64,000 bases of DNA, from contig CAVJPU010000007.1 in the NCBI GenBank assembly GCA_963651445.1, positions 33-64,032 of the forward strand, in the 5' to 3' direction. Both the position numbers and the translations under genes were made by a program. This document shows positions 5,191-51,089 of this stretch, piece by piece (the first letter of the stretch is position 1; every line of letters starts with the position of its first letter). The stretch is from a bacterium (GTDB taxonomy: Bacteria; Bacillota_I; Bacilli_A; RFN20; CAG-826). The notes below the pieces were generated by a model that saw only the letters and a list, made by a program, of their open reading frames with translations, searched no databases and was not told the origin of the DNA.

Positions 5191-6858
5191 ATGGCCACTT
5201 ATTCAGATTTGGCGGAATTGTTGTTCCCTGATATTACCAAAACCATTGAAGATTTAGAAAAAGAATACCCAGCAAGAGATTTGCCAGAGGGAGCGGAGGT
5301 CACTCGTTTCGCCCCATCCCCGACCGGATTCTTGCACACCGGATCGTTGTTCACATCCATGATCGCTTACACCATCGCTAAGGAAACCCACGGTGTTTAT
5401 ATGTTCCGTTTGGAAGATACTGACACCAAGCGCACCATTCCTGGCTCGGCTAAGGATTTGATCACCCAATTGAAGGTCTTCGGCATCGAAGCCGATGAGG
5501 GATACTTCCCAGAAGGCGATAAAGGCAACTATGGCCCTTATCAGCAGTCTGTCCGTAAGGATATCTACCGCACCGTCATCAAGCACTTGGTGGCCGAAGG
5601 CAAAGCCTATCCAGATTTCTGCACCACCGAGGATTTAGAGAAGATCCGCGCTTTCCAGGAAGCCAATAAGATCCTTCCGGGTTATTATGGCGCCTACGCC
5701 AGAGACCGTAATCTCACCGTCGATGAGCAAATCGCCAACATCAAAGCCGGCAAGCCATGGGTCATCCGTTTCCGTTCTAATGGAGACCATGATTCCAAGA
5801 CTTCTTTCGTCGATGAAATCCGCGGAAAGATCGAACTTCAGGAAAACGATGTCGATATCGTCATTTTGAAATCCGATGGACTTCCTACCTATCATTTCGC
5901 CCACGTGGTCGATGACCATTTCATGCATACCACCATCGTCACTCGTGGCGAGGAATGGATCCCATCCACCCCAATCCATTTGGAATTATTCGCCGCGTTA
6001 GGCTGGAAAACGCCGAAATACGCCCATCTTCCGGTTATCATGAAATTAGACCATGGCAATAAGAGAAAGCTTTCGAAGAGAAAGGACGCCGAAGCGGCCG
6101 TCTCCTTCTTCCTTAAGGAAGGCTTCCCGCCTCAGGGTGTCCTAGTCTACCTCATGTCCATCGCCAACTCCAACTTCGAGGAATGGTCAATCGAGAACAA
6201 TTCCTTAGATATCTCTAAATTTACTTTCTCCTTATCCAAAATGTCCTTGGATGGGGCGTTGTTCGATGAAAACAAGCTCATCTACTTCTGCAAAGAAGTC
6301 TTAGCCAAGATTCCAGCCAAGGACTTGCTAAGCCCTGTCACCGAATGGGCCAAGGAATATCAGCCAGCCTTATATGAGAAAATTGCTGCCAACCCATCTT
6401 ATTTCGAAAAGATCTTAGGCATCGAGAAAGATAGGCCGAACCCACGCAAGGACTATGGCAAGTTCTCCGACATTGAGGCCTTGACTCGTTTCTTCTTCAA
6501 AGATGGATATGAAGAAATCGTTTCCAATGGATATCCATTCAATGAGAAGCATAGCAAAGAGTTCTTAGCTTCCTTCTGTGAGGAATTAGCCTCCAACATG
6601 TTATTCGACGTCGATGAATCCACCTGGTGGAATTCCGTCAAGGAAATTGCCTCTAAAAACAACTTCGCCGTTAATAATAAGGAATATAAGGCCAATCCAG
6701 AGGCCTTCAGAGGCAATGTAGCCGACGCCGCGGAAATCCTCCGTATCGCCTTGACCGGCGGCAAGATGTCCCCAAATATGCACGAGATCATCGAAATCTT
6801 AGGCAAAGAAGAGGTCATTCGCCGTCTTAAGGAAGTCTCTGCCAGCTTATCCAAGTAG
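5191..6858 (+). CDS. gltX: glutamate--tRNA ligase (class I GlxRS)
   Basis: 555 aa. HIGH-type motif PSPTGFLHTGS, KMSKS-type motif KLSKRK, RBS AAGGAGG upstream. Discriminating versus non-discriminating specificity cannot be judged by eye. Confidence 0.92.
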   Translation: MATYSDLAELLFPDITKTIEDLEKEYPARDLPEGAEVTRFAPSPTGFLHTGSLFTSMIAYTIAKETHGVYMFRLEDTDTKRTIPGSAKDLITQLKVFGIEADEGYFPEGDKGNYGPYQQSVRKDIYRTVIKHLVAEGKAYPDFCTTEDLEKIRAFQEANKILPGYYGAYARDRNLTVDEQIANIKAGKPWVIRFRSNGDHDSKTSFVDEIRGKIELQENDVDIVILKSDGLPTYHFAHVVDDHFMHTTIVTRGEEWIPSTPIHLELFAALGWKTPKYAHLPVIMKLDHGNKRKLSKRKDAEAAVSFFLKEGFPPQGVLVYLMSIANSNFEEWSIENNSLDISKFTFSLSKMSLDGALFDENKLIYFCKEVLAKIPAKDLLSPVTEWAKEYQPALYEKIAANPSYFEKILGIEKDRPNPRKDYGKFSDIEALTRFFFKDGYEEIVSNGYPFNEKHSKEFLASFCEELASNMLFDVDESTWWNSVKEIASKNNFAVNNKEYKANPEAFRGNVADAAEILRIALTGGKMSPNMHEIIEILGKEEVIRRLKEVSASLSK

Positions 6859-16323: not shown

Positions 16324-17416
16324 ATAAACGGACCTCCCTCTTAGCCTTCGCGGCTTTGATTTTCATCTTAGCAGTCCAATATAGCTGCCAGAATCCGCCT
16401 GGGTAGAACATGACAATCAAGATGGTGAAGACACCGATGATGAGGTTCATGTATGGAGCGATGACGCTCGAAGCGGTTGGGAACAAGGCACCGAACAAGG
16501 AACTTAAGCCGAAGACGAAGACGACGCCTCCGAAGGTTCCCCACAAGGACTTATAGCCACCGATGATGACGGCAGCCAATACGTTGAGGGACAAAGACAA
16601 GCTCAATGCCGGGTCTGATGCGTTGGTTGGGGTAATCGATAGACCAATCGATAAGTAGCAGACACCAGTCAAAGCGGCGGTGACGCAAGCGATGATGAAG
16701 GCCAAAACTCTGTAGTAGAGGAGGTTAACGCCGAAGGCTTGGGCTACTGGGACGGAGTTCTTCATGGCAAGCATGCTACGTCCGGTTGGTGAACGCATGA
16801 TGTTGTAGATGATGAAGACCGTGATAAGCATCAAAACCAAGACAACGAAGAACAACTGAGCGTTGGTGACTTTCTGACCAAACAAAGTAAACTTGCTGAA
16901 ACGGGTAACGCTGATGGTGGAAGAGTGCATGTTCTGAAGGACGATACGGATGATTTCGGAAAGGCCTAAGGTAACGATGGCTAAGAACAAGCCTTCAATA
17001 CGTAAGGAAATGAAGCCGATGATCAAGCCGATGATGACCGACACAACAACAGCCATAATAATGGCTACGATATAAGGTAACTTCCAAGTCAAGCAGGCAT
17101 AGAAAGCGCAATAAGCGCCGATGCCTAAGAAGCAGGAAGAACCCAAGGACGCTAAGCCGGCATAACCCAATAACAAACAGTAGCCAAACGAAACGATGGT
17201 GTACATCATGATATTGGCGATGACGGTCGCATATTTTTGGGAGATGACTCCGACAGATGGCAGGGCCAATAAGCCCAAAACCAAGAAGACAATGCCAAGA
17301 ATCAAGAATTGGTTGATGGTGTTGCCGAAGATGGATTTGGATTTTTCTTTGGCGAAGTTGCGATGATTGTTAGCGGTACAAGTGGCCGCGACATAAGATT
17401 TGACGACGTTGCTCAT
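16310..17416 (-). CDS. livM: Liv-type ABC permease (LivM-like)
   Basis: 368-aa polytopic protein in LivM position and size. Overlaps livG by 14 nt. Confidence 0.88.
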   Translation of the reverse strand: MSNVVKSYVAATCTANNHRNFAKEKSKSIFGNTINQFLILGIVFLVLGLLALPSVGVISQKYATVIANIMMYTIVSFGYCLLLGYAGLASLGSSCFLGIGAYCAFYACLTWKLPYIVAIIMAVVVSVIIGLIIGFISLRIEGLFLAIVTLGLSEIIRIVLQNMHSSTISVTRFSKFTLFGQKVTNAQLFFVVLVLMLITVFIIYNIMRSPTGRSMLAMKNSVPVAQAFGVNLLYYRVLAFIIACVTAALTGVCYLSIGLSITPTNASDPALSLSLSLNVLAAVIIGGYKSLWGTFGGVVFVFGLSSLFGALFPTASSVIAPYMNLIIGVFTILIVMFYPGGFWQLYWTAKMKIKAAKAKREVRLYGAE

Positions 17417-17418
17417 GC

Positions 17419-18366
17419 TTATACCTTCTTTCTAACGGCTTTGCCAAATAAGCCGTTTGGTTTGATTAAGACCAAAATCATGGCGACGCCATAGACAATA
17501 ACGTCTTTCCACATGGTGATGTTGGCGATGGCATCGACGGTGCCAAGCAAATTGACCAAGGCACCCAATAGCCAGATGATGACGGTCGCAACGGCGGAAC
17601 CCCAGAAAGTGGTGAAACCACCGACGACGCAGGCCAAGAAGGCCATCAACTGGACGGAAGTCATGATGGAGGTGTTCAAGGAACCGGTAGTGGTATTCAA
17701 GAACACGCAGGCGAAGCAACCTAGCATGGTTGCGAAGGACCAAGAGAAGGCGGTGATCAAATGGGTATTGACGCCCATCATCTGAGCCGTGGTCTCATTG
17801 GAGGCAGTCATACGGACGCCAAGACCAAATTTAGTCTTATAGACTAAGACGAAGTAGATGACAATCAAAACGACGGACATAGCAACACAGATTACGGTGT
17901 TCCAGTAATAAGTGATGGTGCCAATGGTGAAGCCGTTGGAAACGATTTTGCCATCGATGTTGCTGGTCAAAGCCAAGAAAACGGTCGCCGGGTTCTGCTG
18001 GATGAGGGAACCGTCAGCTTCGTGGATCTGCATGACGACGGAGATAAGGGAAAGCAAAACATAGGTGAAACCCATGGTGATGATTTGCTTAGAGACGGCG
18101 TTGGCCGCTTTGGCGCGCCTAATAATGCATGTATCGATGAATAAGCCCATCAACAAGCAGACGACCAAGCCGATTACCAACGAGAGCCAAATGTTCAATT
18201 TGTCCTCGTAGCAGAGCTTGGCGACCAAATAGCCGCCGAAGGTAGCAATGGTTGTCTGAGCGAAGTTCGTCGTGGTCGAAGTCTTGAAGACAAGAGTAAT
18301 GGCTAAGACGGTAATCAACGATACAAAGAGGTTCAATATGGATGCATTAGAGAAGATAACGCTCAT
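17419..18366 (-). CDS. livH: Liv-type ABC permease (LivH-like)
   Basis: 315-aa polytopic protein. RBS AAAGGA. Confidence 0.88.
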   Translation of the reverse strand: MSVIFSNASILNLFVSLITVLAITLVFKTSTTTNFAQTTIATFGGYLVAKLCYEDKLNIWLSLVIGLVVCLLMGLFIDTCIIRRAKAANAVSKQIITMGFTYVLLSLISVVMQIHEADGSLIQQNPATVFLALTSNIDGKIVSNGFTIGTITYYWNTVICVAMSVVLIVIYFVLVYKTKFGLGVRMTASNETTAQMMGVNTHLITAFSWSFATMLGCFACVFLNTTTGSLNTSIMTSVQLMAFLACVVGGFTTFWGSAVATVIIWLLGALVNLLGTVDAIANITMWKDVIVYGVAMILVLIKPNGLFGKAVRKKV

Positions 18367-18389
18367 ATTATTTTTCCTTTCGTGTCGAT

Positions 18390-18416
18390 GTGGGGAGGCG
18401 AGTGGTCGCCTCCCAC
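18390..18416. other. GC-rich stem-loop between the KAS III-like gene and livH
   Basis: gtggggaggcga-gtgg-tcgcctcccac, about 11 bp. The T-run lies on the plus-strand side only, so it is not a classical terminator for the minus-strand operon. Confidence 0.4.
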
Positions 18417-18442
18417 GTTTTTATAAAGTAGTTGAGTGAAGC

Positions 18443-19474
18443 TTATTCAGCTGGGCCCCATTTGATAACGTTGGCGGACCAGACATAGCCGATGCCGGCA
18501 GCGATCATCGAGACGACGTCGCCATCCTTGACTTTGCCTTGCTGTAAAGCGAGATGCAAAGACAAGATCTGGTCGCACTGGCCGATGTGGCCATAGTCTT
18601 CGAGATAGATGGAGTTCTCATCGGTCAATCCCCAGTGGGCGAGCAAGCCATAATGGCCGGATCTCTTCATATGAAGGACGGATAGGTAGTCGATCTTTTC
18701 TGGGAGGCCAGCCTTCTTAAAGGCCTGGGTAACGCAGTTGTACCAGTTTGGCATGGATACTTCGTTAAGACGGTCCTTCATCTTGACGGCATCCATCAAA
18801 CGTAAGGACTTCTTGGCTTCTTCCCAGTTCTCGCCATTGATTGGGTTAGCCTGGCCACCGATTTCAACACCGGCGGTACGAGCCAAGGAACCATCGGACA
18901 TGAGGTGGGAACCTAAGAGCAAGTTCTTGTTGTAGTTCTTCTTTAAGATGATGGCGGCGCCACCAGCGGCTAAGTTATACATCATGGACATGTTCTTGTC
19001 GGTGTAGTCGACAAAGTCGCCATTGCGGTAGCCACCGCAGACGAGGATGGTGTCGATGGTGTCATCGGCGATCAACATGCAGCGGGCGATTTCCATAGCG
19101 GCAACGCAGGTGCAGCAACGGTTCTGGACATCGATGCCCCAAGCATTCCAAGCGCCGATTCTATCTTGGATGTAGCAGGCGGAAGTGGTGAGTGGATATT
19201 CTTTCCATTCTTCGCCGAAGCAGAGGATGACGTCGATATCCATTGGATCAACGCCGGTGTTCTTCAAGCAGTCAAGAGCGGCTTTGGCGCCCATTTCCTG
19301 AGTGCCATCGACAGTCCAATCGGAAGATGGGATTGGTTTCTGTTTGATGCCGAGTTTGCTAATGACGGCTTCCTCAGACCAGACACCTTTGGTGGCTTCT
19401 GAGATTTCTTTGGCGGTCATGCGGCCTTCTGGGATGTAGATACCAGTACCGACAATACCAACATTTGGTTTCAT
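18443..19474 (-). CDS. thiolase-fold condensing enzyme, KAS III (FabH)-like
   Basis: 343 aa. VGIVGTGIYIPE start, active-site-like Cys in QNRCCTCVAAMEIA, later HMKRSGH and YGHIGQCD segments. No other fab genes nearby. Confidence 0.8.
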   Translation of the reverse strand: MKPNVGIVGTGIYIPEGRMTAKEISEATKGVWSEEAVISKLGIKQKPIPSSDWTVDGTQEMGAKAALDCLKNTGVDPMDIDVILCFGEEWKEYPLTTSACYIQDRIGAWNAWGIDVQNRCCTCVAAMEIARCMLIADDTIDTILVCGGYRNGDFVDYTDKNMSMMYNLAAGGAAIILKKNYNKNLLLGSHLMSDGSLARTAGVEIGGQANPINGENWEEAKKSLRLMDAVKMKDRLNEVSMPNWYNCVTQAFKKAGLPEKIDYLSVLHMKRSGHYGLLAHWGLTDENSIYLEDYGHIGQCDQILSLHLALQQGKVKDGDVVSMIAAGIGYVWSANVIKWGPAE

Positions 19475-19506
19475 AATTTTTTATATCTCCTTAATAGATA
19501 ACTTTG

Positions 19507-40433: not shown

Positions 40434-43253
40434 CTATTCTCCTTCCTTTTTAAGGAACTTGGTCAAAGTCAGAATATTCTCTGAGTTCTCGTATTTGTAT
40501 TTCATATCGTCCATCGTGTTCTTGACGATATAGATGCCAACCCCGCCGACTTTCCTATCTTCTAAGGAAACATCGAGGTTTGGATCGGCGTTGTGCAATG
40601 GGTTATAAGGAATGCCTTTATCGATGAATTTGAGATAGATGGCATTCTTTTCTTCGCGGTATTCCACCGACATCGTAAGTGGCCCGCCTTTGCCTTCATA
40701 GCCATGGTTGATGATATTGGAGACGATTTCGTCCAGAGCGACATCCAACTGATAAGTCGTCTTCTTCGGACAAGACACATTCGATAGCTCGTTGTTAAGG
40801 AATTCGGTCATTTGTTCGATATCCTCTAGCTTAGCTTCATCGAAATGGATGTTTGGGATTGGGATGACTCCCTTATATTGGAAGGCTAACATTGTGATGT
40901 CGTCGGCTTGTTTGGCGCCCGATGCGAATTCATCAATGTCTTTTTGGACCTTTAAGCAGAGATCTTTCATATCTAGGACCTCCATGTTGTTCAGCAAATT
41001 GAGCAAACGTTCTTCTCCGTATAAGGCGAGTTCATTGTTCACAGCCTCGGTTATACCGTCGGTATAAAGGAAGATGATGTCGCCTGGTTCTAACTGCAAT
41101 TGGTTTGAATGATACTTGAATCCATCCATTCCGCCTAAAATGAAGCCGGCTTTGGACTTAAGGTATTCGAATTTGCCAGTGGAGGCTTTTTTGATAAGGG
41201 GAGGATTATGACCACCGTTAACGAAGGTCAATACACCGGTTTCTAAATCGATATTGCCTTGCCAGGCCGTGACGAACATTCCGGCGTCGTTTCTATCACA
41301 TAAAGCCTTATTCGCCGAAGTGAATACTTCATCTAACGGATAATCGGCTTCGGTCATGGTTCTTAAATCCGCTTTGGCGCGCATCATGAACATAGCGGCT
41401 GGGATACCCTTGCCCGAAACATCGGCAATCATGATGTTAAATTTCTCCTCATTTCCGTAAAAATCATAGAAATCCCCACCAACTTCTTTGGCGGTTTTCA
41501 TGCTCGCATAAATATCGAATTCTTGTCGCTTGCTCACTTTTTCGGTGATAACCGGCAAGGAAGAGAATTGGATTTGTTTGGCGAATTCCAATTCGTCGTC
41601 AATTCTTTGATTGGCTTCAGCAATTAACTTCTTCATCGAATCGACGGTCCTGTTGATATCGTTGGAAAGGTAAGACATTTCCTGGGAACCTCTGACATCC
41701 ACCGCTAAAGAAAGATCTCCATTGGAGATAGCGTACAAGGTCTTATTGACATATTTGAGTTGCTTAACGACCGTTCTTTCGATTAAGGCATAGACCAAAG
41801 CAAAGATAACGGCGAAGACAATGACTTCCATGAAGGTGCTTAAATACAAAGACACATTGCGGTCCGCCAAAGCTTCTTCAACCGGAAGCAAGGAAACGAT
41901 GTAATATCCTTCGGATATAGCATAACTACAATAATATTTAGTCCCTTTGACACTGACTTCGAAAGCCTCGGAAATCGTAAAGGAATCTTTGCTACTTTGA
42001 AGCGGCCCGTCTTTCGTGAAGGAATCCGGCCCGGAAACTATTTGCTTATTCTGATCAAGGACAAGGACGCAGCCTTCTTTGCCGACATGGCGGTTCTTGG
42101 TTACGTCAGTGACTTGCTCGGCGATATCTTTTTGAAGACGTTCTCCGTCATATCCAACCTGAACGAATCCATCATCATAGGTAACGCCGGCGAACTTACG
42201 ATAAATCTCCTCATTGGAGCCAATCGGGCCGTAAGCCTGGACATAGGTTGTGGTTTTGCCGTCCAAAAGGCAAAGGAATTCTTCCGATTGATCGGAATTA
42301 TGCATATCCCAACCGATTAAGGACAAATCAGTGCTCTTAATAATGATGCCTTTGCTATTGACGACATGGATATCGGTGACATCACGTCTATCGGCAATAA
42401 GGTCGATGTCGTAGCCTGCGGTTAAATCGGAAGCAACGTCTTGGCAGATGGATAAGATATTCGCGTCGGACTTATCTTTGATGTCCGCTTCGGTATCGGA
42501 AATGGCTAAACTCAACGATTCTTTGGCCTCGCTTTTGGCTAATGAGGTTTGGAAGCTATAAACGAAGACGCCAGAGGCGATAAAACCGACAACGACCGTC
42601 AAAAGAAGCCATTGCTGAACGATTTTCGAGGTCTTGGTGTCCCTTACCTTGGTGAAAATCTTCTCCTTGTTAAGCAAGGTCATGACCAAGGTCGTAACCG
42701 CAAGAGACAAGCCGTTGCTTAAAATCATCGGGAGCGTAGCGGCCCTAACCACTTCCATGGCCTGAGCTTGAGCGCTGAAGTTGGTGAAGAAGATCATCGC
42801 CATATGGAAGACTTCCATAACCACCGCGGCGCAGAAAGCAAAGAAGATGCCAGGACGGCGTTCTTCGAGCATGAATCTACGGATTAACCAGGCGTAGGCA
42901 CCGGCTAAGACGGTAGAGACGCTGCAAGCGATTCGAGTAAAGGAAGAAACGCCCCAATAGACGCTGAAGAAACGTTCGACCCCACCGATAACACCGGCGA
43001 TCATGCCAGCCGGACCGCCAAACATAAGGCCAGCGGTCAAAACAGCCGCGTCACGGCAATTTATCTGGGCCCCAGAGATTGGGATGCCACATTCGGTGCC
43101 AAGAATAGCCAATCCGCCAAAGGCGAGGCCATAGATAATCTGTTTGATGAAGTATTTGAAATTTTTGAATTTGGTGTATTTATCAAGCAAAAAGAAAACG
43201 ACGCTGAGGACAACCGGAGATAGAGCTACTAAGGATAAATAGAAATACTGCAT
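40434..43253 (-). CDS. multidomain sensor: LytS-type 5TM receptor - Cache-like extracytoplasmic domain - HAMP - PP2C (SpoIIE/RsbU) phosphatase - HATPase_c (RsbW/SpoIIAB-like) serine kinase
   Basis: 5TMR_LYT-like INCRDAAVLTAGLMFGGPAGMIAGVIGG. ~270-aa loop between TM helices. PP2C motifs GGDFYDF, ADVSGKG, LYTDGITEA, DDITML. C-terminal kinase motifs LDEIVSNIINHGY, IDKGIPYNP, GGVGIYIV. Start taken at ATG 43253; the track TTG is at 43280. Confidence 0.85.
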   Translation of the reverse strand: MQYFYLSLVALSPVVLSVVFFLLDKYTKFKNFKYFIKQIIYGLAFGGLAILGTECGIPISGAQINCRDAAVLTAGLMFGGPAGMIAGVIGGVERFFSVYWGVSSFTRIACSVSTVLAGAYAWLIRRFMLEERRPGIFFAFCAAVVMEVFHMAMIFFTNFSAQAQAMEVVRAATLPMILSNGLSLAVTTLVMTLLNKEKIFTKVRDTKTSKIVQQWLLLTVVVGFIASGVFVYSFQTSLAKSEAKESLSLAISDTEADIKDKSDANILSICQDVASDLTAGYDIDLIADRRDVTDIHVVNSKGIIIKSTDLSLIGWDMHNSDQSEEFLCLLDGKTTTYVQAYGPIGSNEEIYRKFAGVTYDDGFVQVGYDGERLQKDIAEQVTDVTKNRHVGKEGCVLVLDQNKQIVSGPDSFTKDGPLQSSKDSFTISEAFEVSVKGTKYYCSYAISEGYYIVSLLPVEEALADRNVSLYLSTFMEVIVFAVIFALVYALIERTVVKQLKYVNKTLYAISNGDLSLAVDVRGSQEMSYLSNDINRTVDSMKKLIAEANQRIDDELEFAKQIQFSSLPVITEKVSKRQEFDIYASMKTAKEVGGDFYDFYGNEEKFNIMIADVSGKGIPAAMFMMRAKADLRTMTEADYPLDEVFTSANKALCDRNDAGMFVTAWQGNIDLETGVLTFVNGGHNPPLIKKASTGKFEYLKSKAGFILGGMDGFKYHSNQLQLEPGDIIFLYTDGITEAVNNELALYGEERLLNLLNNMEVLDMKDLCLKVQKDIDEFASGAKQADDITMLAFQYKGVIPIPNIHFDEAKLEDIEQMTEFLNNELSNVSCPKKTTYQLDVALDEIVSNIINHGYEGKGGPLTMSVEYREEKNAIYLKFIDKGIPYNPLHNADPNLDVSLEDRKVGGVGIYIVKNTMDDMKYKYENSENILTLTKFLKKEGE

Positions 43254-43330
43254 CGTTTGTATCGATATTTTGCAACGCAAAAATATCCGTCAAGATTTTA
43301 GCATTGAAGATAATTGATTAAAAGAATGGG

Positions 43331-43846
43331 CTAAATACTGGCTTGGGTGGAAGGAGTGCCGTAGACCTTGTCATAGACAATGACAATCTTCAAGGTGTCG
43401 CCTTTGCCGCTTCCGCCATCCTGCGGGGAAACGGAAATGGAAACGACCATCGGATCTTCGCGATCGGTGATCTTTTTGATAAGGAACGCACCTTGTCTGG
43501 CAGCCTGTTCGCCAGAAGAGAAAGTGATATAGTTTTCGTATTCCTTAGCAAGGGTGTAAACGAAACTTCTATTGGTGGCATTCTCTGGAAGAATGTCGGT
43601 GACGAAAATATAAGGCATATAGCAATCTTCGCCATCGGTGACTTCCTTATCCGGATCGTATTCGATGACGCATTGATGGATGCCACTATCCGTAGTCCAA
43701 TAACGGCTGTTATCGCTCGGCTTGATGGTAAGGCTGGTGATATAAACGACTGGGACGATGCCTTGTGGGCGGGTGCCGAAGACCGTGACGAAAACGATGG
43801 CCAAAAGACATATCGCGCTAACTAAGACGGCTACACCTTTTTTCAT
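43331..43846 (-). CDS. small membrane-anchored extracytoplasmic protein, unknown function
   Basis: Start ATG 43846 after GGAGG (MKKGVAVLVSAICLLAIVFV). ATGA overlap with the upstream permease gene. The track ORF is over-extended to 43972. Confidence 0.6.
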   Translation of the reverse strand: MKKGVAVLVSAICLLAIVFVTVFGTRPQGIVPVVYITSLTIKPSDNSRYWTTDSGIHQCVIEYDPDKEVTDGEDCYMPYIFVTDILPENATNRSFVYTLAKEYENYITFSSGEQAARQGAFLIKKITDREDPMVVSISVSPQDGGSGKGDTLKIVIVYDKVYGTPSTQASI

Positions 43847-45582
43847 AAGACCTCCCCCGTTTTGTAAATATATCTGACTTTGCGAACATAAAGAACGATG
43901 TTGAGAGCTAAATAGATAATTCCTAAGATGAGTACCTTGAATCCGGCGGTTGCTTGCAAGGATGAGAACCATACGATATGGTCCTGGAAGTAGTAATAAT
44001 ACAAGACCGCGAACAGGGCCGAAGTGATAAAAGCCATGATTACCGAGCGGTTTTCGTTCCTAGCTAAGAAGGAACCTCCGCCAAACGTGGAACTTGGATT
44101 GGTGAAGTCAAGACCGGCGCTGTATAGCAAATGACCAACATAGACAAAGACCATAGCCACGCCCATGAAGATCGTTCCTTCAAGCATTTCCGGGCGGATA
44201 TAGCCCAAGGCGATGGTGCAGGCCACTAAGCTCAAGCATCCAAAGATGCCAGGGATGATAAGTTTGCTTCCAACCGCGTAATGTTCTTTCAACGGATATG
44301 TTCTCGCCAATTTGAAGGCGCCGCCCTCTTCAGAATAGATGCGAGCGATGACCGAATTGGTGCTTAAGCCGATAAGCAAGGCGATCAATAAGCTGACGAC
44401 CTGAACCAAGGCATCACCGCGGCTATTCAAGTCCATCGCGGTGAAGATTTTGGCCAATAAGCCAATCAACAGCGGCAAAGCCAAGAAAGTTCCGATGTAT
44501 GAGGAAGAAATGCTGGAATCTTTGAAGAACAAGATGGCATCTTTCTTAATCTGCGAAATGAACGGAGGCAAAGGTTTATTTTCTTTCTCTTTGGCGTTCT
44601 TTCTGCCTTTGGCCTGGAGCTCTCCCGTTCCGCTGGCTAGCTTCAAATACAACGGGCTGGCCAAAGCCAAGGAAGCCACGAACAAGACGACGATAAGCCC
44701 GATTACGGCTAATAAAGTCCATAAGCCAGCGATAGCCGAACGAGACATGTAATAGAAACTGAATCCGGTGAAATTCCCCAAGTAAACCATGGAGACCTGA
44801 TAGAAGAAGCCGAGGTTGTTCTTGTAGTAATTCAAACCATTCTGGATCTTGGCGAAGTACGTGCCCCAGTTCGAGAAAATATCGATGTTATCCGGGACAA
44901 GGGCGATGACAGTGATGCATAAAGCCAAGATGATGGCCACCATGATGGACTTAACGATGATGCTGGCCCAAGTGTGGGTACGGATGCCTTTTTTAAGGTA
45001 ATAAACAGGGATACTTATGACCGAGGCCAATAACAACATTACCAAGTCGACCAAGGCCCAGATGACGAACAAGATGAAATACATATAGATTGGGTATTTG
45101 CTAACGGCGAAATAGCCAATCAAGAATGGGATTTCCAATAACAATGAGCGGCGATATGAGCTGATATAACGAACAGCCAATCTAGATAAGAACAAGGTGT
45201 TCCCATTGGTTGGTAAGGTAAGCAAGACTTTGTTGTCTTCGCCGAAATACAATTCCTCGGTTACCTTCGATAGAGAAGCAATGAACGAGATGATCAAAAG
45301 GATGGTCACCACGATGGATGGAACGCTCATTGGGACGAAGGCTAACAAGGAGAAGATACTGAAACGGATGCAAAAATAGAAGAAGACGTAAGATAAGGCG
45401 GCGACCACCGCGAAAGCCACCAAGCTCAGAACGATCTTGATGATGGCTTTTTTCTTATCTTTCTTCCAGTTGATGGACATGGAGTTGGAGAAAAGCATTT
45501 TCACCAACACCCAAAAGGCACGCCAATCAACCGCGAAAAAGCGTCGGAAAGCAGATGCTTTTTTATTTTCTAGCCTCTTCAC
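43843..45582 (-). CDS. polytopic membrane protein, putative ABC exporter permease (ABC_export-like)
   Basis: 579 aa with about 12 hydrophobic helices. Translationally coupled (4-nt overlap) to the preceding ABC ATPase-containing ORF. Confidence 0.7.
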   Translation of the reverse strand: MKRLENKKASAFRRFFAVDWRAFWVLVKMLFSNSMSINWKKDKKKAIIKIVLSLVAFAVVAALSYVFFYFCIRFSIFSLLAFVPMSVPSIVVTILLIISFIASLSKVTEELYFGEDNKVLLTLPTNGNTLFLSRLAVRYISSYRRSLLLEIPFLIGYFAVSKYPIYMYFILFVIWALVDLVMLLLASVISIPVYYLKKGIRTHTWASIIVKSIMVAIILALCITVIALVPDNIDIFSNWGTYFAKIQNGLNYYKNNLGFFYQVSMVYLGNFTGFSFYYMSRSAIAGLWTLLAVIGLIVVLFVASLALASPLYLKLASGTGELQAKGRKNAKEKENKPLPPFISQIKKDAILFFKDSSISSSYIGTFLALPLLIGLLAKIFTAMDLNSRGDALVQVVSLLIALLIGLSTNSVIARIYSEEGGAFKLARTYPLKEHYAVGSKLIIPGIFGCLSLVACTIALGYIRPEMLEGTIFMGVAMVFVYVGHLLYSAGLDFTNPSSTFGGGSFLARNENRSVIMAFITSALFAVLYYYYFQDHIVWFSSLQATAGFKVLILGIIYLALNIVLYVRKVRYIYKTGEVL

Positions 45583-48044
45583 GCGATTCCTTTCTCCTTC
45601 TTTTCTTCTTCGATCAAGGTGTTGGATTCTTCCTCGCTATCGCTGGTCAAACGGAGGAAGGTCTCTTCGAGATTCTCTCTTTCTTCTGGCTCAGCGTCCA
45701 AATCGATGCGTCTGATGAGGTCGCCTTTCTTGATGATGACGACTTCATCGCAGAGGTTTTTGACGACGTCAATGATGTGAGAGGAGAAGAAGACGATGTT
45801 GCCTTCTTTGGCATGCTCTCTCATGCATTCCTTGATTTGGTAGATGGAATTTGGGTCCAAACCGGTCATAGGTTCGTCCAAAATCCAAATCTTTGGCTTA
45901 TGGATAAGAGCGGCGATGATGGTAATTTTTTGCTTCATGCCATGACTATAAGACTTCATTGGCTTATCGTAACGATCACTCAATTCCAAACGAGTGACGA
46001 GGTTTTTCTCGATTTCTTCTTTCTGTTCCTTGGAGACATGATAAAGGTCGGCAATGTAGCTGATGTATTGTCTGCCGGTAAGATTTTCGTATAAGGCGTA
46101 GTTATCAGGGACGAAGCCGATTTCTTTTTTGGCTTCCAATGGTTCTTCGATGACGTTATGTCCGCAGACATCGATTTCACCACCTTCGAAACCATGGATA
46201 CCGACAATGGACTTGATGATGGTGGACTTACCCGCACCGTTCTTGCCAAGGAAGCCGTAGATCTTCCCGCCCTCTAAATCCAGAGAGAAATCTTTGACGG
46301 TAAAGAAATCGTTCCCGTGGTAACGCTTGGAAAGATGAGAGATGGTTAATTCGATCTTATCGCTCATGATTTTTCCTCCTTGGTGAATGGCTAAGTAAGC
46401 CTGATGACGGCTGATGGATTTTTCTTTGGCTAGACGGATGGCCGCTAATTCGTCGACCACTCTAAATAACAATTCGTATAAGAACCACATTCCGAAGGCC
46501 AAGACGACGTAAACGAGGTAATAAGATATGTCATAGGCCAAATGCAATACGTAGGTATATCCGTTGCTTTCCCAAGTAATCGTGGTCTTGAACAAGTTCT
46601 TGGCCCATTCGCCTAACTTATCGGCGACGAACGAGGAATTGATGAAGAAGAAGTCGCTGGAAATGCCATGGGCGGTAAGAATGGTGTTGACCGCCATAAC
46701 GAAGGCGAAATACACGAAGAACCCTATTTGGGAATAGAGGAAGTAACGCATCTTCGGTCGCTTATAAACGCCGCACATGACGATCAGAACCGGCATGAAG
46801 AAAGCATTTAAATGGTTGATGAAGAAAGCCACGATCTTCGGATCGAAAACATATAAAGATTCCGAGAAATTCGGCATCAATAAGGCTAAGAAAGCGCCTA
46901 ATACATTAACGAAGAAGGTGAAGTAATAAAGACCATAGCTAGCGAATAACAGAGTTATTGGCATGGTATACATGGCGGTGTTGCAAAGGTGCAACGGCCA
47001 AGATGATAAGTCCGTCCAGATATCATAACGGTGTATGGAGGCATAACCAATCAAAGTGCCTAAAGATATCTGAAGTAAGACGCCTCTTCTTTCCTCTTTG
47101 CTCATCGGATATAGCAAAGCGAAATACAAAATCGGCAAGATAAAGGCCAAATAGAGATAGATACGATGGGATAAGTTCTTCGGTCCCTTCGGATTGGTTA
47201 AGGTGTAGCCACCTAAATCAAGAGTCCTTCCAAAAAGAAGGGATGGGGAATAAGCGGTCGCCATCGTAAGCAACATCGGAATCAAAACGGCGATGATCTT
47301 CCTAATTTCTTTCTTGTTCAGTTTGAACTTTCCTTCCTCGAAAAGGCTATGGAAGTAATAGAAATCGATGATAGCCAATTCCAAGCCCATAAGGATGGAA
47401 CGATAGGAAACCGCATCGGTTCCTACTATTCCTTTAAGGACGATTGGAAAGGCTAGGGTAATTAAGATAGAGCCTGGCACGCCGATATAACGACGGACGC
47501 TTAAAGAGGATTCTTCCAAGTAGAAGGCGCTGACCAAAGTCAATACGACCAACGCAGTCCATAAATCAGAAGCCAAGGTGCCGATAACCGACTCGTATTT
47601 GGCTAGCATCAATGGGTCCAAACGAAGCATCAATAACTGGCTTTCGAGATGGAAGATGTCGTAATAAGTGAAAGAACCCGTTCCGCCATAGGCATCGACA
47701 TAGTCATAAGTGCCTCGGAAGAAATAGAAACGGGCGAAGAATAAGATTCCAACGATAATGGAAAGAGAGCAAAGAAGGTATTTGTAACGACCTTCCTTGG
47801 TCGCCAATCTGGCGCTCATTTTGGTAAGCCATTTGGATTTCTTAAAGGACTTCGCTTTATGGTCTTTGAGGTAGCGTTTAAGCAAGATAAAGCCACCAAT
47901 CAAGACCAATAAGAGCAAAATGAACGGCAGGAAATTAAGAGCGTAGTTGCTCTTGTTAATGAAAGATAAGCCAAATGAGAGGCCTATAACGACGAAAAGG
48001 CCCACAAAAAGGCAAATGTTCTTTTTTAGGGCCTTACTCGTCAT
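45579..48044 (-). CDS. fusion ORF: ~559-aa polytopic membrane domain (TIGR02206/YwaF/TMEM164-like segment with WPLHLC motif) + C-terminal ABC ATPase
   Basis: One continuous 821-aa ORF. ATPase part: GKNGAGKST, YSHGMKQK, IWILDEP. An internal AAGGAGG-N7-ATG (ATG 46367) sits exactly at the domain border. Confidence 0.78.
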   Translation of the reverse strand: MTSKALKKNICLFVGLFVVIGLSFGLSFINKSNYALNFLPFILLLLVLIGGFILLKRYLKDHKAKSFKKSKWLTKMSARLATKEGRYKYLLCSLSIIVGILFFARFYFFRGTYDYVDAYGGTGSFTYYDIFHLESQLLMLRLDPLMLAKYESVIGTLASDLWTALVVLTLVSAFYLEESSLSVRRYIGVPGSILITLAFPIVLKGIVGTDAVSYRSILMGLELAIIDFYYFHSLFEEGKFKLNKKEIRKIIAVLIPMLLTMATAYSPSLLFGRTLDLGGYTLTNPKGPKNLSHRIYLYLAFILPILYFALLYPMSKEERRGVLLQISLGTLIGYASIHRYDIWTDLSSWPLHLCNTAMYTMPITLLFASYGLYYFTFFVNVLGAFLALLMPNFSESLYVFDPKIVAFFINHLNAFFMPVLIVMCGVYKRPKMRYFLYSQIGFFVYFAFVMAVNTILTAHGISSDFFFINSSFVADKLGEWAKNLFKTTITWESNGYTYVLHLAYDISYYLVYVVLAFGMWFLYELLFRVVDELAAIRLAKEKSISRHQAYLAIHQGGKIMSDKIELTISHLSKRYHGNDFFTVKDFSLDLEGGKIYGFLGKNGAGKSTIIKSIVGIHGFEGGEIDVCGHNVIEEPLEAKKEIGFVPDNYALYENLTGRQYISYIADLYHVSKEQKEEIEKNLVTRLELSDRYDKPMKSYSHGMKQKITIIAALIHKPKIWILDEPMTGLDPNSIYQIKECMREHAKEGNIVFFSSHIIDVVKNLCDEVVIIKKGDLIRRIDLDAEPEERENLEETFLRLTSDSEEESNTLIEEEKKEKGIA

Positions 48045-48050
48045 AAATTA

Positions 48051-50480
48051 TTAAATAGCGTGATAGTCGCCTAAGATAACGCCGTAGTTGCTAGGACCGT
48101 TATAGGCGGTTGGGGTGGTTAACTGAGAAGCGGAGTAAACGTTGGTTCCGTTGATGGTAGCGGCCAAGAATCCGGCGCTCTTCATGATTTCACCTGGCTG
48201 ATAGCTGCTTGGAACGGTGACAGGAATGCTTAAGGCAGCCATGCCAGCTTTGATGGCGTAGTCGCTAGAGCAAAGGTAGTATTGCTGGGTGCTCTGATCG
48301 ACATTAACGATGCCAAATTCGTGTTTGCCTTCGCTATTGGTAGCGGCAAAGACCAGTTCGTTTTCGATGTTGGCATAGGCTAAGTTGTTGCCATAGAAGC
48401 TGCCGGATACGGCTTCGGCATAGGCATTGTAGGCGGTAGACAATTCTGCAGCCGAGGCAGCAGCCTGAGTGGCAGTCGCGAGAGCGGCGTAAGCGGTCAT
48501 AACCTCTTGGTAGCCATCGAGGTTGCTATAGATGATGTTGTTGCCTTTCTTGACGGTGACGTTGGTGCAACCTTCATCCAAAGACGGGAGCTGCAAGGCC
48601 TCATCTCCAGAAACAGGAAGGTTGACCAAGATAAGATTGAATTTCTTAACATCGTTCTTGGTTCTTAAAAAGGACATGCCGTAAGGGGTGAAAAGCCCGT
48701 CCATGGATTGCAAATTGCTGGCCATGGCGCTGGCGCTATAAGCGTCGAACCAACCACCCTTACCAGCGGTGAAGTTGGAAAGGAAGGTGTTTTCATCGAT
48801 ATTGACTTCAGTGGAGAAGGTCGGGGTGAAGCTTAAAGCGGAAACAACATCATCCGGCAACGGTTCAACCAGAGGATTGGTGAAAATCAATGGTCCACCG
48901 GCCTTGGTAATGTCGGAGTTCTTGATATCGCCTCTGGACTGGCCGAAGAAATAGAGGGCGGCGTTAGCAGAGTCGTTGAAACGGCAAGAGTCGATGTCAA
49001 GCTTCGGGCTGGTGTATTTGCCATCGATATACCTGCCGATTTTCTTAACGCCTCCTTCGGTGTAGGAAAAAGGGCCATCGGCCATGGCGGCCATATAGAA
49101 GCTGTTGACCAAGACGTTGTCGAGTTTGGCGTCGACGGCGGTTTTTAAGAACATCGGTCCCGCTCTTCTGGTGGTGGTAGAAGTGTCATCGACACCATTG
49201 TTTCCGGAAGCCTGGAGATCTTTAAAGATAATCTGGCAATCGAACGGATTCTGGTTGGCGCCGTAATAGCCATAAAACAAGGAAGCGTGGCAAGAGATTG
49301 GCTCGGATTCGCTCTGAGCGTGGCCTTGATCGTTCTCAGTCAAGACGTACGGGAACATATTCTCGTCATCTTCGTTGGTGTTGAAGGAAATCGTATGGAG
49401 GTTGCCATAAACAGTGGCGGTTTCGGCAGCGTCATCGAATTGATGGATGAAAATACGGACGGAATCCTTAAGGCTGCCTACGACACTTGCGTCACAGCCT
49501 TCGCTTTCCTGCCAGATGAAGACGGATGGGATATCGTTCTTGCCGATGGAGATATCGTTCTGAATAACGATGTTATCGGCATCTGGCAAGTTAAGTTCTT
49601 GTTTGAATTCATATACCGGGGTGAAGAAAGAGGCATCATCGGTATTGTTGTTGTAGAAAGCGAACAAATCGGTCGCTTTGCTGACGTTATACGCGTCGAC
49701 GACTTCGACGTTATAAACGATGTCTTTCTGGCCCGAATAGCTGAGGGTGATGGTGAAGGAACCAGTGACGTCGTCCTTGAACTTCAATTGGCCATCTTTA
49801 AGGAAAGAAGAGGCATTTTCGATATAGGAATCAACGACGAGGTCCATGCCTTCGGAGGCTAATTTCATCGTGGCGCCAGTTGGAATGGTGGTAAGCTCGG
49901 TAACCTCATAGGTTTCTTTGTTGAGACCATTCAATTCCGGAAGCAAATTGATGACGTTCATATTGCCGACATAGAAGGTAGCGGACTTCATGAAACCTTT
50001 TTCCAAGTTATCTTCATCAGAAGAAATCTTGTTGTTGACCTGATATCCGGTCGTGTAGGTGTAATTCGGGTTAGCGGCCCAAGAGGAAAGGGTATAGGCA
50101 TCGACGACGTTGTAATTCAAGGTGTCGGTGAATTCCTTGTTGCCATCGTTATAGGTGACGGTAAAGACTTTTCCGGTCGCTAACTCGGAAGTATCAATCT
50201 CGGTGTAGGTGATGCTGTCCTTGTTCTCAATCCATTTGAGGGTCTTCATCTTGTTGTTGTTCTCATCGAAAAGATCAATCGCCAAATTGTTGTAGTTTGG
50301 GGTGGATTTCTGAGAGAAGCTGGTCTTGATGGAACCAGAAACGATTTTAATCGAAGTCAATGTTGGCTGGACGCTGGAAGAATCATCGCTGCTAGAGCTA
50401 TTGTCTGGTCCGCAAGAGGCCAAGCAGGTAGAGGCGATGGCGCCTAGTGCCAATATGGTAATTTTGGTCAGTTTTTTCAT
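48051..50480 (-). CDS. large surface lipoprotein, unknown function
   Basis: Start ATG 50480 after GAGGAG (MKKLTKITILALGAIASTCLASCGP), lipobox LASC, Ser-rich linker, then ~780 aa that look beta-rich. Confidence 0.75.
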   Translation of the reverse strand: MKKLTKITILALGAIASTCLASCGPDNSSSSDDSSSVQPTLTSIKIVSGSIKTSFSQKSTPNYNNLAIDLFDENNNKMKTLKWIENKDSITYTEIDTSELATGKVFTVTYNDGNKEFTDTLNYNVVDAYTLSSWAANPNYTYTTGYQVNNKISSDEDNLEKGFMKSATFYVGNMNVINLLPELNGLNKETYEVTELTTIPTGATMKLASEGMDLVVDSYIENASSFLKDGQLKFKDDVTGSFTITLSYSGQKDIVYNVEVVDAYNVSKATDLFAFYNNNTDDASFFTPVYEFKQELNLPDADNIVIQNDISIGKNDIPSVFIWQESEGCDASVVGSLKDSVRIFIHQFDDAAETATVYGNLHTISFNTNEDDENMFPYVLTENDQGHAQSESEPISCHASLFYGYYGANQNPFDCQIIFKDLQASGNNGVDDTSTTTRRAGPMFLKTAVDAKLDNVLVNSFYMAAMADGPFSYTEGGVKKIGRYIDGKYTSPKLDIDSCRFNDSANAALYFFGQSRGDIKNSDITKAGGPLIFTNPLVEPLPDDVVSALSFTPTFSTEVNIDENTFLSNFTAGKGGWFDAYSASAMASNLQSMDGLFTPYGMSFLRTKNDVKKFNLILVNLPVSGDEALQLPSLDEGCTNVTVKKGNNIIYSNLDGYQEVMTAYAALATATQAAASAAELSTAYNAYAEAVSGSFYGNNLAYANIENELVFAATNSEGKHEFGIVNVDQSTQQYYLCSSDYAIKAGMAALSIPVTVPSSYQPGEIMKSAGFLAATINGTNVYSASQLTTPTAYNGPSNYGVILGDYHAI

Positions 50481-50644
50481 AAAAGTACTCCTCGTCTCCA
50501 AAAATTGGAGGATACCCAATCAAATATGTTACCACATTAAGCGTTTAATAAACCCTATATTTTCTCTTTAGGAGAAATAGTGAATGACAATTCTCTTAAA
50601 AAGCGTCGACAAACACATTGTTTAGGCTTTTCTCTATGAAAAGG

Positions 50645-50684: not shown

Positions 50685-51089
50685 CTATTTAAGCCTAACC
50701 GATAGGACGGTGTAGCCCAGAGACGTTATCGCTGATCTTATTTTGGAGGGGTTTAGTAACGTCTTGGAGACAATCGTCGTGGTCTGGCTCTTTCTCGAAG
50801 ATTTGACTTTGACGCCTTCGAATTCCTTCCTGATGATGTCATTGATATGGCTCTCGCACATACCGCACTTCATCCCTTGGACGGAGACGATGTAAGTCAA
50901 AGTGCCTTTTTTGCCTTTGCTATCTTTTTTAGGTAGAGAACAAGAGGCACAGTTGCCAGTGCATTCGCTTTGAAGGTGACCGCACTCGCATTTCAAGGTG
51001 CCTTTTCTCTTTTTGACGAAGTAACCGACTATCGGCACCACCACCAAGAAGATAGCGACGACGATAATCAGATATTCATACCATTCCAT
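50685..51089 (-). CDS. FeoB-associated Cys-rich membrane protein fused to a heavy-metal-associated (HMA) domain
   Basis: N-terminal TM helix plus Cys cluster (CECGHLQSECTGNCASC). The C-terminal ~70 aa carry GMKCGMCESHI (MxCxxC) and a ferredoxin-like pattern. Confidence 0.72.
   Translation of the reverse strand: MEWYEYLIIVVAIFLVVVPIVGYFVKKRKGTLKCECGHLQSECTGNCASCSLPKKDSKGKKGTLTYIVSVQGMKCGMCESHINDIIRKEFEGVKVKSSRKSQTTTIVSKTLLNPSKIRSAITSLGYTVLSVRLK

Follow-up and report, generated by a model that had tools for sequence, protein, structure and literature searches.

Do four tightly packed genes that encode a lipoprotein, a membrane domain fused to an ATP-binding cassette (ABC) ATPase, a putative exporter permease and a small membrane-anchored protein form an envelope system of their own, and does the signalling cassette encoded directly behind them belong to it? 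This question is raised by the minus strand of a stretch of DNA of 64,000 nucleotides (nt), hereafter the window, from a bacterium of the GTDB lineage Bacillota_I; Bacilli_A; RFN20; CAG-826 (assembly GCA_963651445.1, contig CAVJPU010000007.1, positions 33 to 64,032). We call the four genes A, B, C and D in the order in which they are read, and refer to the sensor/STAS-kinase cassette behind them as the partner switch. The reading that we favour, with a probability of about 0.45, is that A-D encode an ABC-2-type complex that couples lipid movement to acyl transfer in the outer leaflet. That A-D constitute a conserved module independent of the partner switch is very probable. The gene anatomy, family matches, conserved residues, synteny and a conserved internal start signal, which are presented below, were observed directly.

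The A-D module and its fusion protein

A preliminary description of the locus, made from the window alone, had proposed four tightly coupled genes, and its coordinates, sizes and spacings all proved correct. The stop codon of A and the start codon of B are separated by 6 nt, while B and C overlap by 4 nt (GTGA), as do C and D (ATGA). This four-gene arrangement is not due to chance, as it recurs in dozens of species. A scan of species representatives yielded 216 confirmed relatives, and in the best 80 loci, where gene presence was defined by tblastn at an E-value of at most 1e-4, C adjoined B in 75; A was present in 62 loci and D in 52. In a sample of 61 genomes from the same order, the membrane domain of B was present in 20, always within an open frame of roughly 730-850 amino acids (aa). 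At the 19 same-order loci compared, C always followed B and a D-like gene followed C. Gene A was located either before B (A-B-C-D, the Bacilli-type order) or after D (B-C-D-A), which holds in all informative loci of these 19 relatives. Within the genus, the module was found in nine of the 36 other genomes sampled. Judging by the more credible record titles, the family belongs to small-genome gut Bacillota, including Candidatus Enteromonas, Bacilli, 'Mollicutes', Christensenellales and metagenome-assembled genomes (MAGs) of Clostridia. Many MAG records with this operon are titled Alistipes, Escherichia coli, Parasutterella, Bacteroides and so on; these labels are unreliable for taxonomy and were not used.

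The most distinctive product of the module is the fusion protein B. Its WPLHLC segment (47000-46983) had been likened to the TIGR02206/YwaF/TMEM164 family, and it indeed lies inside a match to PF14808 (TMEM164) that spans residues 292-478 with 61.6 bits against a cut-off of 25 (E-value of 1e-16; 69.8 bits in the genome-wide search). The membrane domain of B is therefore a member of the TMEM164/YwaF family. Of the two family models proposed for this comparison, PF14808 thus scored above its cut-off, whereas TIGR02206, presently named 'TMEM164-related integral membrane acyltransferase' by NCBI, reached 52.4 bits (E-value of 4.4e-14), which is significant yet below the curated cut-off of 75. Such a significant but sub-threshold match indicates that the B domain is a divergent subfamily. 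PF00005 (E-value of 2e-25) and PF13304 also match B, and more than 510 protein clusters share the two-domain architecture of PF14808 plus PF00005; those that carry a name from their source are called 'YwaF family protein' or ABC ATPase.

An AlphaFold2 (AF2) model of B, built with 52 homologues, has a predicted local distance difference test (pLDDT) score of 88.5 and contains about 14 membrane helices, a linker helix (residues 502-553) and the ATPase. The N-terminal extension that precedes the TMEM164/YwaF-type domain is specific to the family and is variable or shorter in distant relatives, such that distant orthologues align only from residue 150-200 onwards. The ATPase domain dominates the Foldseek results for this model, and TMEM164 (9lw1) was not among the 50 matches listed. 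Two further TMEM164/YwaF genes, which stand alone and in tandem (241 and 248 aa), are present on another contig of the same genome (C30:170-1601), bringing the family to three members in this genome.

Among PDB sequences, human TMEM164 (9lw1) was the sole match of a profile built from eight sequences of the B domain (E-value of 0.11). TMEM164 requires C123, H181 and G155 for its function, with C123 carrying the acyl intermediate and H124 being dispensable (PMC12830759); the idea of a Cys/His dyad in this protein comes from Reed et al. (bioRxiv 10.1101/2022.07.06.498872). The profile alignment pairs H411 of B with H181, G383 with G155 and H352 with H124. The column of C123 holds Leu351, and an invariant cysteine, Cys354, follows three residues later on the same helix. 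Y177 of TMEM164 aligns with Phe407, and no acidic residue is found at the position of E106, where the alignment is of low confidence. In a set of 52 B sequences reaching down to 30% identity, P350, H352, C354, Y374, F375, N380, G383, A387, H411, P418, R429 and P430 are invariant in all 52. The invariance of the Cys, His and Gly residues of the enzyme domain over this range argues for catalysis.

The orientation of these residues in the membrane can be predicted from the ATPase, which must be cytoplasmic and so places the C-terminus of B inside the cell. With the basic loops at 311-317 and 429-434 also on the inside, a count of the AF2 helices would bring C354 to the outward end of its own helix, with H411 about nine residues inward of the outer face. 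The C354/H411 pair is thus predicted to reside in the outer half of the membrane.

The ATPase domain itself has intact and invariant motifs, including Walker A (G600-T608), the signature (S700-Q705), Walker B (D723-E724) and the H-loop (H756). Its best NCBIfam matches are DrrA (190 bits) and GldA (182 bits), both below the equivalog cut-offs, and models of lantibiotic-protection ATPases score well too. Foldseek of the AF2 model returned EcsA, ABCA-type (ABCA7) and LptB as fold matches. By these sequence scores, the ATPase is of the DrrA/ABC-2 type.

Gene B also contains a conserved start signal of its own. At the beginning of the ATPase domain, a Shine-Dalgarno (SD) sequence precedes an in-frame ATG encoding Met560 (AAGGAGG-N7-ATG), a combination that is single-copy in the window. 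Across 80 B orthologues, 36 of 1658 internal in-frame ATGs had GGAGG 5-10 nt upstream, and all 36 were at about the expected position of the membrane-domain/ATPase junction in their open reading frames. The GGAGG at the junction encodes Gly-Gly, and the first of these codons is almost always GGA, in lineages where synonymous sites are presumably saturated. The strict choice of GGA-GGN codons together with the position specificity argues for a signal at the nucleotide level. The ATG of full-length B, just past the stop of A, has no SD, and an SD-like motif was found at this start in none of the 32 genus-level orthologues, where the start likewise sits a few nt past the A stop. Where B leads the operon, as in the Clostridia-type order, its start usually has an SD. 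The conserved internal SD and the SD-less start of full-length B suggest that the gene probably makes two products, a full-length fusion at low level, coupled to translation of A, and a free ATPase of 262 aa. This would make the conserved internal start a clean and testable case in which a single gene sets the subunit ratio of a membrane complex.

Two relatives differ from this layout. One locus (L018, genome G029) has an additional gene for a free ABC ATPase directly after D (5972-6790; 272 aa, 60% identical to the B ATPase), and another (L028, genome G052) encodes a free ATPase and a C-like permease without any YwaF domain (17162-19484). Both would fit a transporter core to which an enzyme was added, and the ATPase and C-like pair without YwaF looks like the ancestral form of this core.

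Gene C had been described as a putative exporter permease with 12 helices, a description that is supported. A hydropathy scan found about 12 hydrophobic helices, ten at a strict threshold and two weaker ones, in a 6+6 layout. It also revealed a basic N-terminus and a basic central loop, both cytoplasmic in the assigned layout; in the first half, helix 6 is preceded by a long outer loop. Similarity between the two halves is weak (hhalign E-value of 0.007, probability of 6%). Window C had no direct family match in Pfam, with nothing at an E-value of 10 or less apart from noise; neither it nor its orthologues matched NCBIfam, and the C profile had zero matches among PDB sequences. The preliminary description had named PF16962 (ABC_export) as a candidate family for C, which we reject, as it matched neither C (E-value of at most 10) nor any of 20 orthologues. 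Instead, eight of these 20 orthologues match PF16949 weakly (best E-value of 1.4e-8), two match PF01061, and other ABC-2 families match single ones.

The two remaining genes encode predicted surface proteins. The claims that A is a lipoprotein and that D is membrane-anchored both held; A has an LASC lipobox, and D has one N-terminal helix. Cys23 of A is invariant in 34 homologues and is preceded by a basic and then hydrophobic N-terminus, and the genome encodes Lgt (151 bits) and Lsp (123 bits); A is a bacterial lipoprotein. The Lgt match is located in a 595-aa open frame (contig C1:187461-188228), about twice the usual length of Lgt, which may be a fusion. The AF2 model of A (pLDDT 90.4) consists of two N-terminal immunoglobulin (Ig)-like domains, a body of short-strand repeats and a C-terminal mixed domain. 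When this model was compared with the PDB by Foldseek, only the Ig-like N-terminus had matches (S-layer Sap, LigA) and nothing convincing was found for the body, which in BFVD gave weak matches to tailspikes and pectate lyases at low TM-scores. A itself matched no Pfam or NCBIfam family, and its profile had zero matches among PDB sequences. Of its 34 homologues, ten match PF13229 (Beta_helix) and three match Big_3. Together with the model, these are signals of a beta-helix-type body.

The large partner is a lipoprotein in every locus examined, though its body differs. In one family, A is replaced by lipoproteins of 1500-1900 aa with Flg_new repeats, one with a pectate-lyase-like adhesive domain. 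The D alignment contains an LPENAT...DGS pattern, four of 13 D homologues match Big_2, and the D profile matches Ig/cadherin-like PDB chains (E-value of 1e-4). The coordinates of all features are given in Table 1.

Table 1. Positions of the A-D genes and of associated features in the window, listed in the direction of reading.
Feature	Position	Strand	Description or basis
Intrinsic terminator	50676-50655	minus	7-bp GC-rich hairpin, then T run, after HMA-domain gene
Promoter-like extended -10 (TGTGgTAACAT)	50526-50536	minus	about 45 nt upstream of A start
Gene A	50480-48051	minus	809-aa surface lipoprotein, lipobox LASC
Gene B	48044-45579	minus	821-aa fusion, 14-helix membrane domain + ABC ATPase
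B residues 1-271, N-terminal extension	47232-48044	minus	about 7 helices; AF2 model, hydropathy scan
B residues 291-528, TMEM164/YwaF-type acyltransferase-like domain	46461-47174	minus	7 helices; Pfam, PDB profile match
Cys354 codon (in WPLHLC)	46983-46985	minus	candidate acyl-enzyme nucleophile; invariant 52/52
His411 codon	46812-46814	minus	aligned with catalytic His181 of TMEM164; invariant 52/52
Internal SD and in-frame ATG (AAGGAGG-N7-ATG, Met560)	46381-46365	minus	start of ATPase domain
Second B product, free 262-aa ABC ATPase (Met560 to end)	45579-46367	minus	predicted from conserved SD
Gene C	45582-43843	minus	579-aa permease, 6+6 helices
Gene D	43846-43331	minus	171-aa, one N-terminal helix + extracellular Ig-like (Big_2-like) domain
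D-to-sensor gap	43254-43330	minus	77 nt; promoter-like motif + second conserved box

A proposed mechanism and its alternatives

A role in the envelope or in lipid modification, as first suggested from the window, is the most reasonable reading. In the mechanism that we propose, C, with its 12 helices, would form the membrane core of a transporter of the ABC-2 type (type V-like) that is powered by the ATPase domain of B, and the TMEM164/YwaF-type acyl-enzyme domain of B would act through Cys354 and His411 at the outer leaflet. Driven by ATP, C would move or extract a membrane lipid or a lipid-anchored substrate, and the tethered enzyme would couple this step to acyl transfer. D, as an Ig-like anchor, and A, as a beta-helix lipoprotein, would be the extracellular partners and might provide a docking platform, an acceptor or a downstream user. 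Gene B would yield two products: a scarce fusion, translated from the SD-less start behind A and coupled to it, and a free ATPase in abundance. The complex would then contain C and two ATPase domains, at least one of them with the YwaF enzyme, and could consist of a single C together with a fusion and a free ATPase. What we infer in this mechanism is its topology, stoichiometry and substrate, and that transport and acyl transfer are coupled.

A more specific version is possible but doubtful. Here, the complex would be an ATP-driven machine for extracytoplasmic acylation, made of an ABC-2 core and a tethered Cys-His transacylase and deliberately asymmetric by means of the internal start. The ABC-2 core would flip or extract either a lipid that donates the acyl group or the lipid anchor of its cognate beta-helix lipoprotein, and the covalently tethered transacylase would modify this flipped or extracted lipid in the outer leaflet.

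The genome (96% complete) gives some context for a role in lipid metabolism. It encodes two DegV (FakB-like) fatty-acid-binding proteins and has a FabH-like match (ACP_syn_III_C, 55 bits). An elongating condensing enzyme of the FabF/FabB type was not found in the genome, with no match to PF02801 and a marginal one to PF00109 (41 positions). A genome with DegV proteins and no FabF/FabB found suggests dependence on exogenous fatty acids, and with the YwaF paralogues added, lipid scavenging and remodelling are plausible. As the carriers of the module are small-genome gut Bacilli and Clostridia, remodelling of surface lipids or lipoproteins could matter for their life in the host.

Several points weigh against coupled lipid movement and acyl transfer. 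The metal-centre residues E106 and Y177 of TMEM164 are not kept in B, Cys354 stands three residues past the alignment column of C123, and the TIGR02206 score is below its curated cut-off. How close C354 is to H411, and how deep both lie in the membrane, is predicted from sequence and helix order only, and it is the weak matches of its orthologues that suggest that C is an ABC-2-like permease. The internal GGAGG doubles as Gly-Gly linker codons. The patchy distribution within the genus marks A-D as an accessory module rather than as part of core lipid metabolism. Among the papers searched, none dealt with the function of bacterial YwaF or with the B-type fusion. Likewise, no description of an acyltransferase domain fused to an ABC ATPase was found in the literature searched. 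The parts of the module are of known kinds, and their combination is undescribed. We know of no bacterial YwaF/TMEM164 member with a known activity, nor of an earlier case in which a lipid acyl-enzyme is physically joined to an ABC transporter; if true, this would to our knowledge be the first.

The same kinds of parts occur in NosDFY(L) (PDB 7OSF), an ABC-2 complex that matures nitrous oxide reductase and works through a docked surface protein. The likeness is one of architecture only and comprises an ATPase and a permease of the ABC-2 type, an extracytoplasmic beta-helix protein and a lipoprotein. By analogy, A-D might be a mechanotransducer in which ATP hydrolysis drives a conformational change in docked A, with D as adaptor, and in which the YwaF domain adds or removes an acyl group on the ligand of A or is only a membrane scaffold. 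The beta-helix signals in the A homologues are consistent with this, as is the large surface partner that stays with B-C across orders. However, we consider such a mechanotransducer unlikely. The searches of PDB sequences in which the A and C profiles had no match included NosD and NosY, and A and NosD, like C and NosY, had no detectable similarity in sequence. Pfam returned no NosD family match among the A homologues, and the top 50 structures that Foldseek returned for the A model did not include NosD. Furthermore, NosY has six helices and forms dimers, whereas the 12 helices of C are in one chain, NosDFY has no enzyme domain fused to NosF or elsewhere, and no copper-handling context is present here.

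A second alternative concerns the lipid anchor of A. LhaT, a member of the ATGY superfamily, acylates the N-termini of lipoproteins outside the cell by means of a lipid-carried acetyl donor (PMC12345273). If A-D were a dedicated lipoprotein-modifying machine, the YwaF domain would acylate or re-acylate the lipid anchor at the N-terminus of A, in analogy to the acetylation of Bacillus lipoproteins by LhaT, and the ABC part would flip a lipid acyl donor or present the lipoprotein. Several observations agree with this model. However much its body varies, the large partner always keeps the lipobox Cys, and the translation of B is probably coupled to that of A in this lineage. The genome encodes both Lgt and Lsp, and the active site is predicted to face outward. 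LhaT (YpjA, DUF1405) resembles B in being polytopic and of the same ATGY superfamily, and its action on the outer face parallels the outward site predicted for B. Moreover, its acceptors are lipoproteins, and the module encodes a lipoprotein alongside. Still, LhaT represents another branch of the superfamily (YpjA/DUF1405), so it is not direct evidence for YwaF proteins, and it is a stand-alone protein of six helices without an ABC partner. In addition, an ATP-driven machine for one lipoprotein would be unprecedented, and the lipid anchor may merely hold A near the complex. These points make a dedicated lipoprotein-modifying machine rather unlikely.

Operon boundaries and the neighbouring partner switch

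Upstream of A, an HMA-domain gene associated with FeoB ends at 50685 on the same strand. The hairpin and T run behind this gene, which have an equivalent at the matching place in two relatives (loci L042 and L043), form an intrinsic terminator that is the 5' boundary of the A-D unit. The extended -10 element upstream of A is a putative promoter. It is single-copy in the window and aligns with TGTGATACAAT in L042 and with TCGTTACAAT in L043. Genes A and D each start with an SD (GAGGAG-N8-ATG and GGAGG-N5-ATG, respectively). A simple promoter scan gave nothing useful near the upstream region of A or the D/sensor junction, and promoter-like motifs emerged at these places only by comparison between species.

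The spacing between D and the sensor had been reported as 77 nt to an ATG at 43253, or 50 nt to a TTG at 43280, and both values are right. From this proximity, the preliminary description had proposed that the whole 38.9-50.5 kb block could be one system with its own signalling module. In such a system, the partner switch would sense or control the exporter and be co-transcribed with it. The genes are on the same strand, and the gap has no stable hairpin or terminator (fold z-score of 0.61). Neither of the two candidate sensor starts has a ribosome-binding site, and the membrane domain of the sensor (5TM-LYT in Pfam) would suit the sensing of the envelope. Adjacency is also kept in the three closest species. 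The order feoB-HMA-A-B-C-D-sensor is fully syntenic in L042 and L043, where B is 96% and 81% identical to that of the window, and C, D and the sensor share one contig in a fragmented genome (G031, B 77% identical). These three sensor-linked relatives are the closest ones (B at least 77% identical), and the full order is found only in this small clade.

The linkage is not conserved beyond this clade. The sensor and STAS-kinase follow D in two of the 80 species loci, namely L042 and L043, and are thus absent downstream of D in the other 78. In the next relatives (B 75-78% identical), A-D lack both the sensor and feoB as neighbours. Searched across the whole genome, none of five A-D carriers of the same genus (92-98% complete) contained a sensor homologue, while as a control the query found itself and four other genomes. 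Among the 61 same-order genomes, convincing sensor homologues were present in four (that of the window, G000, together with G031, G048 and G024), and three more had weak or partial ones. B and a convincing sensor occur together only in G000 and G031, whereas G048 and G024 carry the sensor cassette without B. Linkage is confined to two of 80 loci and one fragmented genome, and co-occurrence across relatives does not bear out the proposed single system with its own signalling module. A lack of conserved linkage among relatives is what the preliminary description had itself named as refuting this idea.

The gap itself points in the same direction. It contains a promoter-like motif of the TGnTAAAAT type, AATGCTAAAATC (43305-43294, minus strand), and a second conserved box, GCAAAATATC, which ends about 11 nt before the sensor ATG in four species. 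Both are kept in these four species although the gap widens to about 150 nt in G031 and to about 350 nt in L043, and the former stays with the sensor rather than with D. Because the motifs travel with the sensor despite longer gaps, the cassette appears to bring its own upstream signals. The second box could serve as an operator or as a -10 element from which a nearly leaderless mRNA would be transcribed. Read-through from D into the sensor is possible in this strain. All in all, a single envelope system that includes the partner switch is quite unlikely; the partner switch is a recent neighbour in the closest relatives and not a component, and it should be analysed on its own.

Comparison with known transporters and acyltransferases

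An ordinary ABC-2 efflux or immunity pump for a drug, bacteriocin or lantibiotic, of the LanFEG plus LanI type and with the YwaF domain as a non-catalytic anchor, is very unlikely: the good scores of the ATPase against DrrA and lantibiotic-protection models, the patchy, accessory distribution in the genus and a lipoprotein encoded alongside, as in LanFEG/LanI systems, would fit such a pump, but the enzyme domain keeps its Cys, His and Gly without exception even at 30% identity, A with its 809 aa and its Ig-like and beta-helix-type parts is unlike the small LanI, and no bacteriocin or regulator genes are conserved nearby.

A further comparison is with TarGH, Wzm-Wzt, ABCA and ABCG, which are ABC-2 or type V exporters of lipid-linked polymers and lipids. 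The module shares with these exporters an ATPase of the DrrA/ABCA type and a permease with ABC-2-like features, including the long outer loop. It differs from them in that C is a fused 6+6 chain and that no glycosyltransferase or polymer-synthesis genes are linked. By analogy with this group, the substrates of the complex are likely to be lipids or lipid-anchored molecules.

Human TMEM164, for its part, remodels ether phospholipids. Compared with TMEM164 (PF14808; cryo-EM structures 9LW1/9LW3) and YwaF, residues 291-528 of B score above the Pfam cut-off and have the same seven-helix layout. The catalytic His, the Gly of the substrate access (G383, equivalent to G155) and the adjacent His are kept, and an invariant Cys is located on the helix of the nucleophile. 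The differences from TMEM164 are that this Cys comes three residues later than C123 and that E106 and Y177 are not kept. Finally, B departs from both TMEM164 and YwaF in its seven-helix N-terminal extension, its fusion to an ABC ATPase and its place in a four-gene transporter operon. Several hundred fusions of the B type, with their permease and surface partners, provide a defined genetic handle on the function of bacterial YwaF/TMEM164 proteins.

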